From the UHGV virus genome UHGV-0305822: a stretch of DNA of 64,000 nt. One strand, given 5' to 3'. A program made the translations under genes and the position numbers. Every line of letters starts with the position of its first letter. The stretch's first letter is position 1. A model generated the notes under the pieces. The model saw only the letters and a program-made list of their open reading frames with translations, did not search any database and was not told the origin of the DNA. This document shows positions 2,266 to 59,875 of the stretch, in pieces. This DNA comes from a virus.

Positions 2266-2299
2266 GGTGGGGGTAAACCCCCCACCTTTTATTTTTTTG
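2266..2299 (+). terminator. intrinsic terminator
   Basis: ggtgggggtaaaccccccacc hairpin followed by ttttattttttt. Confidence 0.65.
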
Positions 2300-2322
2300 T
2301 TCGTTAATATTAAAAATAATTT

Positions 2323-2345
2323 CAGATATATATTACCTAGGTGAG
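2323..2345 (+). promoter_or_regulatory. candidate phage promoter element, copy A (cAGATATATATTACCTAGGTGAG)
   Basis: AT-rich element containing TATATTAC, about 45 nt upstream of ATG 2392; related copies at 59801, 20449, 10961 and 29567. Confidence 0.4.
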
Positions 2346-2391
2346 AGTACAAAAGCTCTCACTTAATAAAACCATTTTAGGAGTATTAAAG

Positions 2392-2763
2392 ATGAAAAAC
2401 GAATTATTTAAAGACCCGTTTGTTGTATTAATGATCGTTACTCGCGCTGCCACTAACCCAGAAAACCTGAAACGTTTACTTACTAACGAAGCATACCTTA
2501 TCGAACAGCGTGACGCGCAGTTAGCCAAACCGCACGCTGAAGGCCAGGCGAAAGACCTTATCTCTATTTTCCGTAACGAAGAATGGCGTAAAAACAACGA
2601 GCTGTCCGACAACTTGACGGTTGCAATTGCAAAACTCTTGACACTGTTCAATCTTGACAAAGACATTAACCAAAGCCTTTCTACAGAAGAGCGTCTGGAA
2701 ATGATAAGAGGTATCGGAGATAGTTATACACAGATTAAAGCATTACCCAACACAGTTATTTAA
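2392..2763 (+). CDS. hypothetical protein, paralog of 59876..60265
   Basis: ORF track starts at 2341 but the ATG at 2392 has SD ttttaggagtattaaag and gives N-terminus MKNELFKDPFVVLMI, identical to the paralog at 59876. Confidence 0.7.
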   Translation: MKNELFKDPFVVLMIVTRAATNPENLKRLLTNEAYLIEQRDAQLAKPHAEGQAKDLISIFRNEEWRKNNELSDNLTVAIAKLLTLFNLDKDINQSLSTEERLEMIRGIGDSYTQIKALPNTVI

Positions 2764-2809: not shown

Positions 2810-3271
2810 ATGAAAACCTTTATCACATTCTTAATAACCATTTTAACTTTCGGCCTCAATAGCGCACACGCCGCTATCAACAGCTGGGAACAAATACAAA
2901 ACCCTGGCCAGGCAGTTTACGAAATTGAAGACACCGCCGGAAACGGACTGTCTATCAACTGTGACACAGAAACTGCGAATCGCAAATTTTACGGTCGCAT
3001 GGTTTGGTATTACGGTGAACCCGTAGGTGCAACTAACGCTGAAGATAACACGATGGATATTGTCGTAAACGGCAAAACCTATAACATCCCTACCGTGGAC
3101 GGTAGTGACAAAGCAGAACACGCTTGGGTTGCTTTCGTTAATGCTATCGGTAATGCCAAAACTTTCAGTGTGAGTATCAATGGTAACGATGCCGCTAACT
3201 TTACCGTAGAAGGCGAACGTCTGTCTGAAACTTTCTTCCAAAACTGTGGACACACCCGTCCTAACAAATAA
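2810..3271 (+). CDS. small secreted protein (predicted signal peptide)
   Basis: N-terminus MKTFITFLITILTFGLNSAHA-AIN looks like a Sec signal with AxA cleavage site; 2 Cys in mature part; SD gaaggag. Confidence 0.7.
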   Translation: MKTFITFLITILTFGLNSAHAAINSWEQIQNPGQAVYEIEDTAGNGLSINCDTETANRKFYGRMVWYYGEPVGATNAEDNTMDIVVNGKTYNIPTVDGSDKAEHAWVAFVNAIGNAKTFSVSINGNDAANFTVEGERLSETFFQNCGHTRPNK

Positions 3272-3293
3272 TTATTAGTCTTTTTTAGAGTGC

Positions 3294-3686
3294 GTGAAAA
3301 TGAATATCAGAACTATACTTTATACCATCATTATTTTCTGTGCGGTCGGAATTACTGGCACTTATGCTTTCGGTGATTCGGATGTCCGCTATTACGAACC
3401 GGCTCCTGACTCACCGATTATCAACCCGGATGAGACGCCTACGTTAATGCGCAGTTTCGGTAAACTACAAGTTTATCGTTTAGTGCGTGGTGAAACGTGT
3501 ACGGGATTACTCATTGCTGACACCCGTGCACAAGTCTACCAACGTCTGACGGATATCGCCTGCGAACAACCAAAGGTAATGTCGGTTAGCATCCATCCGC
3601 TATCAGTTGGTAACTATACCGCTGTGGACTTCTTTCACAACGCCGAATTAATCGGACGCGTTACCTTAAATCGTCCTGCCGAATAA
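3294..3686 (+). CDS. small secreted or membrane-anchored protein
   Basis: hydrophobic N-terminus ILYTIIIFCAVGITGTYAFG; start could be GTG 3294 or ATG 3300. Confidence 0.6.
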   Translation: MKMNIRTILYTIIIFCAVGITGTYAFGDSDVRYYEPAPDSPIINPDETPTLMRSFGKLQVYRLVRGETCTGLLIADTRAQVYQRLTDIACEQPKVMSVSIHPLSVGNYTAVDFFHNAELIGRVTLNRPAE

Positions 3687-3704
3687 TCTAAAGGAGTAGT
3701 TACA

Positions 3705-4190
3705 ATGAAACGTTTACACACTCTGATGTTCTTTCTGGTTTTCTTGTTTATCGGTGTCACACCAAGTGTAGATGCGGCCTCCGTAGACGAATTGCTTACC
3801 TGTGATGGAAACGCTTGGGAAGGTCAGCCAAATGCGTGCCCAAACATCAACGACTTGTACGATACCGATAAGTCGTTTAAAGCCGTTGTTGATAAAACAT
3901 TAGACCCTGTGGGACTGGATGGTATGTTCGGCTCTAAAGGTTACATGGATGGCCCTGGCGGTAACATGTATCCGGTAAACATCAACAACAAAATCTGGAT
4001 TGAAAGTGGCGGTTGTAAAGCTAACGCTTGTGGTTGGGAATACATCGTAACGCTATACAACCCACACACCAAGAAACTCGTCGGTTATTACTACAACATC
4101 GACCCCGGTTATCTGATCTGGTTCGGTGATATCGGTGTTGCCGAATTCGCTTACCTGGTTAAGAAATACGTAGAACAATCTAAATACTAA
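3705..4190 (+). CDS. small secreted Cys-containing protein
   Basis: signal-like N-terminus MKRLHTLMFFLVFLFIGVTPSVDA; 6 Cys; SD taaaggag. Confidence 0.7.
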   Translation: MKRLHTLMFFLVFLFIGVTPSVDAASVDELLTCDGNAWEGQPNACPNINDLYDTDKSFKAVVDKTLDPVGLDGMFGSKGYMDGPGGNMYPVNINNKIWIESGGCKANACGWEYIVTLYNPHTKKLVGYYYNIDPGYLIWFGDIGVAEFAYLVKKYVEQSKY

Positions 4191-4201
4191 GGACTTTTAT
4201 C

Positions 4202-4612
4202 ATGAAAACTATCATCAATACTCTTCTCATTGCAATGGCTGTTCTGTTCTCTGTCAACGCTACAGCAAAAACAATACAGTTGCCAGACAATATTAAGTAC
4301 GTCAATAGCACCGATGATTTCTATTGTACGGAAATTGACGGCTTGTACTGCCAGGCGAAGAGTCTGTTTAAATACAAAGGTAGCAGATACGTATTCATCG
4401 TTGAGCAGGGTGGTGCCTGGTGTTACGACAGCCCAATGTCCGTACTCAACCTCGAAACGTGGAAGGCCCAACGTCTCGAATACAACGACAAACGTCTGTG
4501 CTCTGGTAATAACAAACCATTCTTCGAAGTCGTAGATGGTGTGCCAATGGTAGGGATATTAGACACTTCGGAAAAACCTATCGTTGTAGCTATGGATAAA
4601 CTTAAAATTTAA
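4202..4612 (+). CDS. small secreted Cys-containing protein
   Basis: signal-like N-terminus MKTIINTLLIAMAVLFSVNATA; 4 Cys. Confidence 0.7.
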   Translation: MKTIINTLLIAMAVLFSVNATAKTIQLPDNIKYVNSTDDFYCTEIDGLYCQAKSLFKYKGSRYVFIVEQGGAWCYDSPMSVLNLETWKAQRLEYNDKRLCSGNNKPFFEVVDGVPMVGILDTSEKPIVVAMDKLKI

Positions 4613-4622
4613 GGAGTAACTC

Positions 4623-5012
4623 ATGCGTCTCGTCTGCGTTTTAGCATTCTTCTTCTCCCTGAGTGTAGCAGCATCTACTCAAGTTAACGATTTACTGCTA
4701 ACCCCAAACAACAATACCGATTACCAGTACAATCCTCCGGGGTTTGAAGTTTGTGAAGTCGGTGAAACAATCTGCCAAGAAGTCGGCGCAGACGGGCGCT
4801 ATATTCTGGTAAAAGCTGATGGTGGCACAATGTGTCCCGCAGGTTATTACTTTCTGCTCGATTCCGTCGCAAGAGAGGTTCTTCCTATCACCACGAAAAC
4901 GTGCGACCCTACCGTTGTCTTAACTCTCGCTAAAAGCAAATCTCGCGACCGTTACCTGATCGTTATCGAAGAACGGGGCAAGATGGCTGGTGCTATCGAA
5001 TTAGATCATTGA
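4623..5012 (+). CDS. small secreted Cys-containing protein
   Basis: signal-like N-terminus MRLVCVLAFFFSLSVAAS; SD taaggag. Confidence 0.7.
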   Translation: MRLVCVLAFFFSLSVAASTQVNDLLLTPNNNTDYQYNPPGFEVCEVGETICQEVGADGRYILVKADGGTMCPAGYYFLLDSVAREVLPITTKTCDPTVVLTLAKSKSRDRYLIVIEERGKMAGAIELDH

Positions 5013-5022
5013 GTGTAGTCTT

Positions 5023-5049
5023 GGCCCCGATACGTTCGGGGTCCTTTTT
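5023..5049 (+). terminator. intrinsic terminator
   Basis: ggccccgatacgttcggggtcc hairpin followed by ttttt. Confidence 0.65.
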
Positions 5050-10403: not shown

Positions 10404-10964
10404 TTGTCGAGCTATCAATCGGCGGTACACGTTTTAATACTACACATCAACTCCGGGCGTTTCGTTATGTTAACGGTACGTAAAGAATCTGAAATTGGTA
10501 ACGATCTTTTTAATGCGCCCGAAGACTATAAAGTCGTTACCATTAACTGCGTAGGAGCGATGGGTCGCGGTATTGCACTCGCGTGTCGTGAACGCTACCC
10601 CAACCTTTATCAGGATTATCGTAAGCGGTGTCGTGAAGACGAAATTAAGATTGGAAGCGTTTACGTTTACTCTGACGAAAAGTGTATCTTGCTCCCCACG
10701 AAAACACATTGGCGTTTAAAATCCCAGGTTTCTTATGTTACTGCGGGCATTACCGCATTAGCAGACTGTGTTGAGGATCTGGATACCAGCGTTGCTATCC
10801 CTCCGTTGGGAATGGCAAATGGGTGGTTAGATTCCTGGGAAAGACAAGAAATCTTTTTGTGGCTTTACAAAAAACTTGAACCGAGGAGGCAGCGCTACAC
10901 GTTATACTTACCTGATAAGCTGTACCAAGAAGCAGAGTCATTAATTCCAAACTCTTTTAAATAG
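10404..10964 (+). CDS. macro-domain-like protein (possible ADP-ribose binding or processing); start uncertain (TTG 10404 or ATG 10467)
   Basis: segment VVTINCVGAMGRGIALACRERYP resembles the macro-domain loop N-x(6)-GGGV-x(2)-AI; later VAIPPLGMANGW resembles the second macro Gly loop; by-eye comparison only. Confidence 0.35.
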   Translation: MSSYQSAVHVLILHINSGRFVMLTVRKESEIGNDLFNAPEDYKVVTINCVGAMGRGIALACRERYPNLYQDYRKRCREDEIKIGSVYVYSDEKCILLPTKTHWRLKSQVSYVTAGITALADCVEDLDTSVAIPPLGMANGWLDSWERQEIFLWLYKKLEPRRQRYTLYLPDKLYQEAESLIPNSFK

Positions 10965-10984: not shown

Positions 10985-11064
10985 AACAAAGGAGTATTAG
11001 CTGTCCGCGCCGTCATTTCGTCTTACGGAATACGGAAATGTATAAATCCAACTGGAGAAACAAA

Positions 11065-11763
11065 ATGTTTCGTATCTTCTTTCTTTTACTGGTAACACTT
11101 TTCGCGTTTAACGCACAGGCGTCAACGTCAACGCCACATTCTAAGCATCAGCGTGAGTTTGCACAAATCCAACATCGGTTCGAAAAAGTCAGCCCGTTAA
11201 TTGTGGAAATCTCACGAAAGCAGGGCGTTGATCCCAAGCTGATGATTACGCTGATTTATCGTGAATCGCGTTTTGATCCCAAGGCTTACAACAAAAGCTC
11301 ACGAGCGCACAGCCTGGTACAAATGCTTCCAAGTACCAAGCGTAATCTGCTAAAGCTTTATGGAAAAGAATTAGGTCTTAGTCAGAACGCCGATTTGTAT
11401 AATCCGCGTAACGCTGTTTTGCTGGCTACCGCGTATGTTAAACATCTTGAGAAGGGGTTAACCAAACGACTCAAACGCAAGCCCACCATGGCTGAAATTG
11501 CGTTAGCTTACCACTGGGGTGAAAGTGGCGCTCACACGCGAATCAAAAGCAAATCTCGAGCAGCACAACGAGAAATGGCAGGCTTTATGAAAGACGCCGC
11601 GTTCTATAGCGCGAAAATCGATGTGCCTGTTGTTGTGGGCTCGGCCCCACGTCAGCTTGCGTTTGCGAAGAAAACACCACGTCAGATTCAACTGGCGGAA
11701 GTTAGTAGAATTTGGGATACGATAAACATGAGTTTTCCAATCAATAGAGGAGTTACCCTTTGA
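11065..11763 (+). CDS. secreted soluble lytic transglycosylase (SLT domain)
   Basis: signal-like MFRIFFLLLVTLFAFNAQA; SLT motifs ...LIYRESRFDPKAYNKSSRAHSLVQMLPST...; ATG 11065 after ggagaaac (the track ORF starts at 11038). Confidence 0.7.
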   Translation: MFRIFFLLLVTLFAFNAQASTSTPHSKHQREFAQIQHRFEKVSPLIVEISRKQGVDPKLMITLIYRESRFDPKAYNKSSRAHSLVQMLPSTKRNLLKLYGKELGLSQNADLYNPRNAVLLATAYVKHLEKGLTKRLKRKPTMAEIALAYHWGESGAHTRIKSKSRAAQREMAGFMKDAAFYSAKIDVPVVVGSAPRQLAFAKKTPRQIQLAEVSRIWDTINMSFPINRGVTL

Positions 11764-12335: not shown

Positions 12336-12815
12336 ATGATAAAATTCATTTGGCGTTATCCAACGCGTTTTTGGTTTGTGGTACTTGAACTGTGTATGGT
12401 TCTTGTAGCGGTTACTTTTGTCGAAGCACCCGCCTCGCAGTTGGCCATTTTCTGCCTTTTCGTGACTGTCCCTGTATGGGTGATTGCGAAGGTTATTAAG
12501 TTCGTCATGGTGTGTTGGGCGAATTATACCTGTCCGTATAAGCCTAAACAAATCATGAAATGGCTGATGTATATTGAAGAACGTTTACCGGCGCAACATA
12601 AATTACTGGGCTGGTCGTCAATGTTGGATATTGCGCTAGAAACCAATGCAAAGTTCCCCGGTGCGAAAAACCCGTATTTGTTGATGGCGGTAATTGTTGC
12701 ACAACAAAAACTGGCAGGTGACCGTTGGTTGCCAGAAGAAGCGAAAGCGTATATCCGTAAACATCCAAAAGCTTTTTACTCGGTAGGACAATGGCGTAAC
12801 TTGCCTTTATTTTAA
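12336..12815 (+). CDS. integral membrane protein
   Basis: multiple hydrophobic segments (FWFVVLELCMVLVAVTF, LAIFCLFVTVPVWVIAKVI); SD taaaggagc. Confidence 0.65.
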   Translation: MIKFIWRYPTRFWFVVLELCMVLVAVTFVEAPASQLAIFCLFVTVPVWVIAKVIKFVMVCWANYTCPYKPKQIMKWLMYIEERLPAQHKLLGWSSMLDIALETNAKFPGAKNPYLLMAVIVAQQKLAGDRWLPEEAKAYIRKHPKAFYSVGQWRNLPLF

Positions 12816-16988: not shown

Positions 16989-17447
16989 TTGATGAAAATG
17001 CTGTTATTCATCATGATGGTGTTCGTGGGGTTGGTGAGTAATAGCTACGGCGACGAAGTTAAACGTCCAGCTTATAGGCCACTGGAACTTCCTCCTACAC
17101 CGCCAATAATGGTGAATTGGAAAATTGACAATAACGCAATGCGTGAGTATGTTGCGGACGTCAACACCTATGCTTACTACGTTTATGTCTACACCCGAAA
17201 TTTAAACCAACAAGCCGTTAAACGTGGCTGGAGCCCACCAATGCTGGCTCCACTTTGTGAGCGTTATGAGTTACCGAAGTTACATGTTGTACCCGAACGC
17301 TTATCTCTTGACGAAAGCTCTTTAACGCCCCAGGAGATTAGCCGTGACCTATCGCGTAAACTCAATAATTTGTTGTGGAATTACCGTTCCGACCGTCAGA
17401 CACTACTCGATTCGTACAACCAATACTTGACATCGTGTTTGTACTGA
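16989..17447 (+). CDS. secreted protein (signal peptide)
   Basis: N-terminus MMKMLLFIMMVFVGLVSNSYG; SD aaggag. Confidence 0.55.
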   Translation: MMKMLLFIMMVFVGLVSNSYGDEVKRPAYRPLELPPTPPIMVNWKIDNNAMREYVADVNTYAYYVYVYTRNLNQQAVKRGWSPPMLAPLCERYELPKLHVVPERLSLDESSLTPQEISRDLSRKLNNLLWNYRSDRQTLLDSYNQYLTSCLY

Positions 17448-59783: not shown

Positions 59784-59800
59784 CCCTATTGAAAATTATC

Positions 59801-59824
59801 TTAGATATATTTTACTTAGGTGAG
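59801..59824 (+). promoter_or_regulatory. candidate phage promoter element, copy B (TTAGATATATTTTACTTAGGTGAG)
   Basis: about 50 nt upstream of ATG 59876; near-identical to copy A upstream of the paralog at 2392. Confidence 0.4.
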
Positions 59825-59875
59825 CGTTGTAGAATTACACGCTATTCGACTGTTTAACCTAAAGGAGTATTAAGA

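Follow-up and report, generated by a model that had tools for sequence, protein, structure and literature searches.

A five-gene cluster for putatively exported, cysteine-containing proteins, one with a predicted Ivy-like fold, in an Escherichia coli-associated SPN3US-like jumbo phage

Little is known about what jumbo phages of the nucleus-forming type do outside the cytoplasm of their hosts. The virus genome UHGV-0305822, of which a stretch of 64,000 nucleotides (nt) was analysed here (the window), raises this question through five consecutive open reading frames (ORFs), W1 to W5, which occupy positions 2810-5012 of the plus strand and all begin with signal-peptide-like sequences: are the products exported and, if so, what might they do in the envelope of the infected cell? 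The cluster is conserved in all SPN3US-like phages examined (53 GenBank genomes), where its genes are annotated only as hypothetical. The reading favoured here, to which we give about even odds (a probability of roughly 0.5), is that the unit is an early, exported battery of a nucleus-forming-type jumbo phage, with W3 as a muramidase-type inhibitor, that serves to protect the cell wall and envelope.

The five ORFs are co-oriented and separated by 10-28 nt. They are W1 (2810-3271, 153 amino acids, aa), W2 (3294-3686, 130 aa from a GTG codon or 128 aa from the ATG at 3300, the start favoured by its homologues), W3 (3705-4190, 161 aa), W4 (4202-4612, 136 aa) and W5 (4623-5012, 129 aa), each preceded by a GGAG-type ribosome-binding site (RBS), with the exception of W2. 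Signal peptides were called throughout with a heuristic of our own based on hydrophobicity, charge and the (-3,-1) rule. By this measure all five N-termini combine an n-region containing K/R, a hydrophobic core of 13-19 residues and an A-x-A-type (small-x-small) cleavage site, which reads, from W1 to W5, AHA↓A, TYA↓F, VDA↓A, ATA↓K and VAA↓S. About eight of the 77 ORFs in the window are signal-peptide-like, and five of these are consecutive, a run for which the chance expectation is 9e-4 to 9e-6. The mature proteins contain 2, 2, 4, 4 and 4 conserved cysteines, an even number in each case; W2 and W5 have one extra, non-conserved cysteine each, which lies within the signal peptide.

An initial annotation of this DNA had described five consecutive signal-peptide ORFs with two to six cysteines per mature protein. 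The run was recovered exactly where it had been placed, and orthologues from 11 related contigs keep both the signal-peptide character and the cysteines; the range given for the cysteines has to be replaced by the counts above. Neither W4 and W5 nor their orthologues have a lipobox ([LVI][ASTVI][GAS]C) where the hydrophobic region ends; their sites are of the signal peptidase I type, and the possibility that W1-W5 are lipoproteins was ruled out, as they lack a lipobox. The best-supported assignment is that W1-W5 are Sec-exported, disulfide-bonded periplasmic proteins, the export step being one that we infer from the N-termini. The earlier proposal of a periplasmic, disulfide-bonded battery encoded in one unit thus draws support from sequence features, conservation and the Ivy-like fold predicted for W3, which points to a periplasmic family.

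The region has no DNA-level match among GenBank phages apart from a 40-nt intergenic motif. Identity of the neighbouring SbcC/SMC-like protein to its counterparts is 69 % for Erwinia phage Asesino and 57 % for Salmonella phage SPN3US, and the window is therefore assigned to a new lineage of the SPN3US/phiEaH2 group, jumbo phages with genomes of ~240 kb. A 225-kb IMG/VR contig (L009) encodes a W5 that is 100 % identical to that of the window. A circular 'plasmid' from a human urine isolate of E. coli (L020; NZ_CP173450.1, 221,873 bp) belongs to this clade of jumbo phages, carries all five genes and is 79.5 % identical to the window at the nucleotide level over the cluster region. This record suggests a carrier state or a co-sequenced phage, and suggests E. 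coli as the host.

The matching position is occupied by gp180-183 in SPN3US and by gp201-204 in Asesino/phiEaH2, and the orthologues of W2, W4 and W5 are SPN3US gp180, gp182 and gp183 (49, ~30 and 48 % identity, respectively). Over eleven related contigs the cluster comprises five genes in the clade of the window, four in SPN3US and Erskinevirus and three in the Huxley/Caitlin/ChrisDB clade, with signal-peptide-like N-termini and a core of 2-Cys, 4-Cys and 4-Cys proteins always kept. On comparison of these genomes W2, W4 and W5 are the putative ancestral core, found in every SPN3US-like phage, and W1 and W3 are clade-specific additions. W4, W5 and gp181 were linked by hhalign (93.8 % for W4-W5, 96 % for W4-gp181 and 67.5 % for W5-gp181) and are, by profile comparison, paralogues. 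Paralogy of W1, W2 or W3 with W4/W5 was also considered and was not supported by hhalign; for W2, a cross-match to phrog_5248 (2e-3) leaves a remote link open.

Detection of such proteins in virions had been named at the outset as a finding that would speak against a periplasmic battery. In the mass-spectrometric inventory of the SPN3US virion, which lists 83 proteins (Table S4 in the supplement of PMC5105663), gp173 is followed by gp193 and gp180-183 are missing. These four proteins are thus not SPN3US virion components, and the battery reading stands on this point, with evidence that covers the SPN3US orthologues. A literature search for signal peptides in SPN3US returned nothing relevant.

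W3 has a signal peptide of residues 1-24 (VDA↓A), a disulfide loop C104-KANA-C109 and a second cysteine pair, C33/C45. Its N-terminus (MKRLHTLMFFLVFLFIGVTPSVDA↓AS) has the positive n-region, hydrophobic core and A-x-A-type site that are kept in all homologues. No tblastn match to W3 was found in 50,697 phage records. W3 gave a weak match (18.6 bits, E=1.3e-3, residues 86-133) to NF007443, the NCBIfam model for the Ivy family C-type lysozyme inhibitor, and within the W3 family 14 of 16 members matched NF007443 (best 2.2e-4) and 11 of 16 matched Pfam Ivy (best 7.7e-3). All these matches are sub-threshold, the family members falling short of the gathering score of PF08816 and of the 180 bits of NF007443. 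A search with the W3 family profile retrieved the Ivy chains 1GPQ and 1XS0, the C-K-x-x-x-C-G loop being aligned in register, and hhalign aligned W3 with E. coli Ivy over 75 columns that include the N-terminal helix (E=3.6e-4; the centre of the Ivy sequence used agreed with the profile-search output). The predicted structure of W3 contains an antiparallel sheet flanked by helices, the arrangement that defines the Ivy fold. W3 is accordingly predicted to have an Ivy-like fold in which a disulfide-closed loop lies between two strands. Identification of W3 as YfjT or YfjS was tested and rejected. A Foldseek comparison of the W3 model with viral structures gave no match, and a literature search for phage-encoded Ivy gave nothing relevant.

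In Ivy, a protruding loop closed by a disulfide, with the consensus CKPHDC, reportedly provides the inhibitory histidine. The loop of W3 (CKANAC) does not conform to this histidine-containing consensus, and its relatives have CKSNAC, CKAHAC, CKSDAC or CKANTC between invariant flanks. Ivy inhibits C-type lysozyme; in vitro, Ivy proteins of Pseudomonas also act against MltB, and the Ivy of E. coli inhibits lytic transglycosylases weakly (PMC10139938). With the predicted fold as a guide, a probable activity of W3 is inhibition of a peptidoglycan-cleaving enzyme, the likely targets being a lysozyme or a lytic transglycosylase.

W3 also has a history outside phages. Homologues with 59-67 % identity are located in E. 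coli CP4-type integrative islands, where they adjoin DUF932, antirestriction, RadC and CbtA/CbeA genes and have a dynamin/YjcZ/patatin cluster upstream. W3-like DNA, always annotated as hypothetical, was present in 2,319 of 5,426 complete E. coli genomes (~43 %), and the W3 allele of a sister phage (L011) has 96-97 % DNA identity to chromosomal copies. Immediately upstream of the intact island W3 lies a decayed W2 (nt 5657-5982 in L004-L008; nt 4930-5370 in L022). In one strain this pseudogene has an intact mature domain and a frameshifted signal-peptide region, and others have an internal deletion in addition; a W2 remnant was found in 41 of the 5,426 genomes. In the simplest history, an island acquired a W2-W3 fragment from a phage of the window's clade, and W2 then decayed there while W3 was kept; this direction is preferred because W2 is a core gene of all SPN3US-like phages. 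Between two phage sub-clades W3 is the most diverged gene of the cluster (66 % identity, compared with 76-95 % for the others). That W3 alone was retained and spread in E. coli would fit a gene that protects against phages.

Two peculiarities were observed among the database entries for this family. The ORFs at 3483-3983 in L020 and 5376-5864 in L022 are labelled 'partial, missing N-terminus' in RefSeq (PGAP) despite being intact, with a start codon and a signal peptide; the label is probably an annotation artefact that stems from longer, mis-started references of 223-227 aa (P0007, P0009, P0011 and P0012). In two proteins from single Logan contigs (P0013 and P0014), a Dynamin_N or YjcZ N-terminus is fused to a W3-like C-terminus, and these chimeras could be island rearrangements or assembly artefacts.

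The initial annotation had recognized no family among the five proteins. This can be refined for all five: W3 is Ivy-like, W1 is YfjT/YkfB-like, and W2, W4 and W5 correspond to gp180, gp182 and gp183 of SPN3US, W4 and W5 being paralogues. The five proteins gave zero matches to known anti-phage defence proteins in a PADLOC scan, and no other lysozyme-inhibitor family was matched by profile. When they were scanned together with 32 family members against Pfam, PHROGs and NCBIfam, W1, W2, W4 and W5 matched only PHROGs without a function, and their Pfam/NCBIfam matches were not consistent among the 32 family members. Profile searches of PDB sequences with the families of W1, W2, W4/gp181 and W5 were uninformative.

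W1, which has a signal peptide of residues 1-21 (AHA↓A) and two cysteines, matched YfjT of E. coli K-12 in BLASTP (E=6e-15 over 133 residues) and hhalign (97.2 %, E=4.3e-11), and a hidden Markov model (HMM) of the W1 family matched YkfB at 2.3e-16 and YfjT at 3.6e-15. By similarity over its full length W1 is assigned to the YfjT/YkfB family. No tblastn match to W1 was found in GenBank phages. The W1 homologues P0022-P0033 carry a precomputed Pfam domain, PF27224.1, which is probably the same YfjT/YkfB-like family. W2 is 44 % identical to Asesino gp201, matches phrog_9424 at 1.4e-40 and has two invariant cysteines, C67 and C88; its hydrophobic region of ~19 residues is long enough for a membrane anchor, so that W2 would be exported or possibly signal-anchored.

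W4 has four cysteines, ~30-31 % identity to SPN3US gp182 and Asesino gp203, and a match to phrog_8968 at 2.8e-33. W5 has a signal peptide of residues 1-17 (VAA↓S) and 47-51 % identity to its orthologues; its four cysteines (C44, C51, C71 and C94) and the motifs YNPPxFxVC and CPAGYYF are invariant. The W5 family is present in 53 GenBank jumbo phages, all of them SPN3US-like, and is annotated as 'hypothetical protein' in all. An exhaustive HMMER search over 1.84e9 representative proteins with a W4+W5 profile found only 18 relatives and no bridge to a known family. An HMM of the W5 family scored 13-15 bits against the mature domain of YfjS/YafY, a score reached by 0 of 3,000 shuffles, and hhalign gave 56-59 %. 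In the Pfam scan no W5-family member reached PF20494, the link to YafY being weak and seen in one direction only, and the profiles of W4 and gp181 were not significant against YfjS/YafY. The link of W5 to YfjS/YafY is tentative and is treated as a lead only. The structure model of W5 was of too low quality for use.

Whether the five genes are expressed together, and when, was approached through the signals that flank them on the plus strand. An intrinsic terminator at 2266..2299, with an 8-pair stem (seven G-C) at 2266-2286 and then a T-run (TTTTATTTTT), closes the upstream unit, and another at 5023..5049, with an 8-pair stem (six G-C) at 5023-5043 and then a T-run, closes the five-gene unit. 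Both had been noted initially as the bounds of one unit, and both were found; the interval also holds a sixth gene (gene 0, 2392-2763, plus strand, 123 aa), which has an RBS (tAGGAG), an ATG at 2392 and no signal peptide, and which lies between a promoter-like motif and W1. Gene 0 matches phrog_27024 (function unknown) at 1e-10 and was found in the window and L009 only. It was rejected as an ancestral member of the unit, because L010-L012, the closest relatives, lack it and the first genes in other clades are not related to it, and on this distribution it is a lineage-specific, optional first gene.

The promoter-like copy that had been reported upstream of the unit is a conserved AT-rich motif at 2306..2349, with the core TCAGATATATATTACCTAGGTGAGAG at 2322-2347 (consensus TCAGATATATATTACyTAGGTGAGAG), and it is syntenic across clades. 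It heads the corresponding unit in the window, L009-L012, SPN3US, phiEaH2/Asesino, Huxley and L018. In SPN3US it lies directly upstream of gp180 and in L010-L012 directly upstream of the W1 homologue; other clades have one or two extra genes between the motif and the cluster. There are four to seven copies per related genome, and 175 jumbo-phage records matched the motif, 57 of which are Pseudomonas phages. A literature search with the consensus string was uninformative. Conserved AT-rich motifs before early operons have been reviewed as early promoters for the virion RNA polymerase (PMC7598289), and the motif found here is probably a candidate early promoter of this kind. Early expression of the W1-W5 unit is likely, because a motif of the early virion RNA polymerase promoter type heads the unit in every clade. 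A second copy of the motif in the window, at 59785-59826 (AGATATATTTTACTTAGGTGAG), presumably heads another unit of equal temporal class.

The favoured reading can be set out as a series of steps. The phage would infect, or be carried by, E. coli; its virion RNA polymerase would read the AT-rich motif and transcribe the optional cytoplasmic gene and the five Sec-exported genes, up to the terminator, as one unit. Signal peptidase would cleave the five products, and each would acquire one or two disulfides from DsbA as it folds in the periplasm. W3 would then bind and inhibit a peptidoglycan-cleaving enzyme, be it a lysozyme or a lytic transglycosylase, and the battery as a whole, including whatever W1, W2, W4 and W5 may contribute, would, at an early stage of infection, protect or re-tune the cell wall and envelope of the host. 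In the leading scenario it would block the wall-degrading entry devices of superinfecting phages in the manner of Spackle of phage T4, which is made early, inhibits the tail lysozyme gp5 from the periplasm and thereby keeps superinfecting phage out (PMC7677548). Among the envelope functions that had been suggested from the outset, the Ivy fold and the fact that islands have kept W3 indirectly favour inhibition of periplasmic enzymes or superinfection exclusion, and nothing supports receptor blocking. A bolder version, which we consider doubtful, is that the operon is a periplasmic anti-entry battery in which each protein neutralizes a different device that competing phages use to breach the envelope or degrade the wall; W3 would be an Ivy scaffold with a loop that diversifies after its targets, the W3 captured by E. 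coli from a jumbo phage and kept in ~43 % of complete genomes would be an unrecognized periplasmic anti-phage defence gene, and YfjT/YkfB, and perhaps YfjS/YafY, would be of the same functional class.

Instead of guarding the wall against incoming phages, the exported proteins might control the timing of lysis, as antiholin-like sensors (cf. T4 RI) or as brakes on the phage's own exported endolysin, an explanation that we regard as unlikely even though it heads the rivals. This endolysin (window 11038-11763) is an SLT-domain lytic transglycosylase (PF01464, 8.8e-15) with an N-terminal signal or signal-arrest-release (SAR)-like segment (MYKSNWRNKMFRIFFLLLVTLFAFNAQA); it may be exported independently of a holin, and it would then be periplasmic before lysis. 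Since inhibition of lytic transglycosylases by Ivy proteins is known in vitro, a brake with the Ivy fold is plausible, and T4 does have periplasmic antiholins (PMC12894885). The cluster, however, is 6 kb away from the endolysin, in a unit of its own that is bounded by terminators and headed by a motif of the early type, and E. coli islands keep W3 without such an endolysin. There is also a mismatch of enzyme class, canonical Ivy being specific for C-type lysozyme and SLT belonging to the goose-type (GH23) class. The next candidate in order, likewise unlikely, is that the genes are 'moron' cargo from a pool shared with CP4-type islands (YfjT/YkfB, YfjS/YafY-like and W3 families) that modulates envelope physiology or stress signalling, such as Cpx, and not muramidases. 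The homology of W1 to YfjT/YkfB, the presence of W3 homologues in the same kind of island and the 13-15 bits of the W5-family HMM against mature YfjS/YafY are what such a pool would lead one to expect, and overproduction of YafY switches on the Cpx response (PMC6538781). Yet the W5-YafY link is weak, runs in one direction and is not accompanied by a PF20494 match in any W5-family member, W4 and W5 have no lipobox, the island proteins are all without known function, and the Ivy fold of W3 would be left unexplained.

Two further explanations are less probable than these. One is that the proteins are not soluble in the periplasm at all, being instead signal-anchored inner-membrane proteins, virion components or proteins whose N-termini are not functional export signals. 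It draws on the hydrophobic region of W2, which could anchor in the membrane, and is improbable in view of the A-x-A-type sites kept in all families, the virion proteome of SPN3US, from which the orthologues are missing, and the match of W3 to a family with periplasmic members. The least probable is the classical role of Ivy, in which W3 and its partners would protect gut E. coli, whether infected or carrying an island, against the C-type lysozyme of animals: the fold would suit this role, the sources are animal- and human-associated, and some E. coli alleles (CKAHAC) have a histidine where the Ivy loop has its own, but the W3 allele of the window has no histidine, a lytic phage would gain little within one infection cycle, and E. 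coli already has Ivy and MliC. Taken against these alternatives, an early exported battery with W3 as a muramidase-type inhibitor is the reading that we retain. A Macro-domain protein is encoded just upstream of the endolysin (10404-10964), and two other ORFs (12336-12815 and 16989-17447) have signal-peptide-like or transmembrane-like N-termini and might encode lysis or envelope proteins.

If the favoured reading is true, the cluster would provide a defined, probably early, exported module with which superinfection exclusion and cell-wall protection by jumbo phages could be probed. W3 would be the first phage-borne Ivy-fold protein found, as no match was found among GenBank phages or in the viral structure library. 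The reading would also offer a hypothesis for a family of hypothetical proteins carried by 2,319 of 5,426 complete E. coli genomes, and for yfjT and ykfB of K-12. The decayed W2 beside an intact W3 in the islands is, in addition, a clear case of a lytic jumbo phage giving a gene to its host.

The cluster may finally be set beside the systems that it resembles. Direct counterparts are gp180-gp183 of SPN3US and gp201-gp204 of Asesino/phiEaH2, all hypothetical proteins, which share with it the gene order, the promoter-like motif and the downstream SbcC/SMC-like gene. In these phages, however, W1 is absent and a 4-Cys paralogue, gp181, fills the slot that is held in the window by the unrelated, Ivy-like W3. 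W1 matches YfjT (CP4-57) and YkfB (CP4-6), uncharacterized y-ome proteins of E. coli K-12, in length, signal peptide, two-Cys pattern and sequence, although its identity to them is only ~24 %; the genes for YfjT and YkfB adjoin that of the lipoprotein YfjS/YafY, whereas the gene for W1 belongs to an operon of a jumbo phage. The W5-family profile aligns with the domain of the inner-membrane lipoproteins YfjS/YafY (PF20494), including PPxF, C-x-x-G-YY-[FY]-L-[LV]-D and the second cysteine, but YfjS and YafY are lipoproteins, and W4 and W5 have a signal peptidase I site and no lipobox.

W3 is likened above to Ivy (PF08816, NF007443; PDB 1GPQ, 1XS0 and 1UUZ), from which it differs in scoring far below the curated cut-offs, in its loop (CKANAC in place of CKPHDC), in the extra cysteine pair C33/C45 and in a longer insert before the sheet. 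Ivy is encoded at the chromosomal ivy locus, whereas W3 comes from a lytic jumbo phage and from CP4-type islands of E. coli. In function, W3 and perhaps the cluster as a whole are best compared with T4 Spackle, a small protein with a signal peptide, made early, that inhibits a peptidoglycan-cleaving enzyme in the periplasm (PMC7677548). The two have no sequence family in common, and none of the five ORFs has a significant Pfam, PHROG or PADLOC match that points to Spackle; Spackle is moreover one protein with an exclusion phenotype, whereas the system described here is a five-protein operon with a putative role in exclusion. The cluster thus resembles known periplasmic early proteins of phages and Ivy-type inhibitors, and it is unusual in the evolutionary footprint that it has left in E. 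coli.

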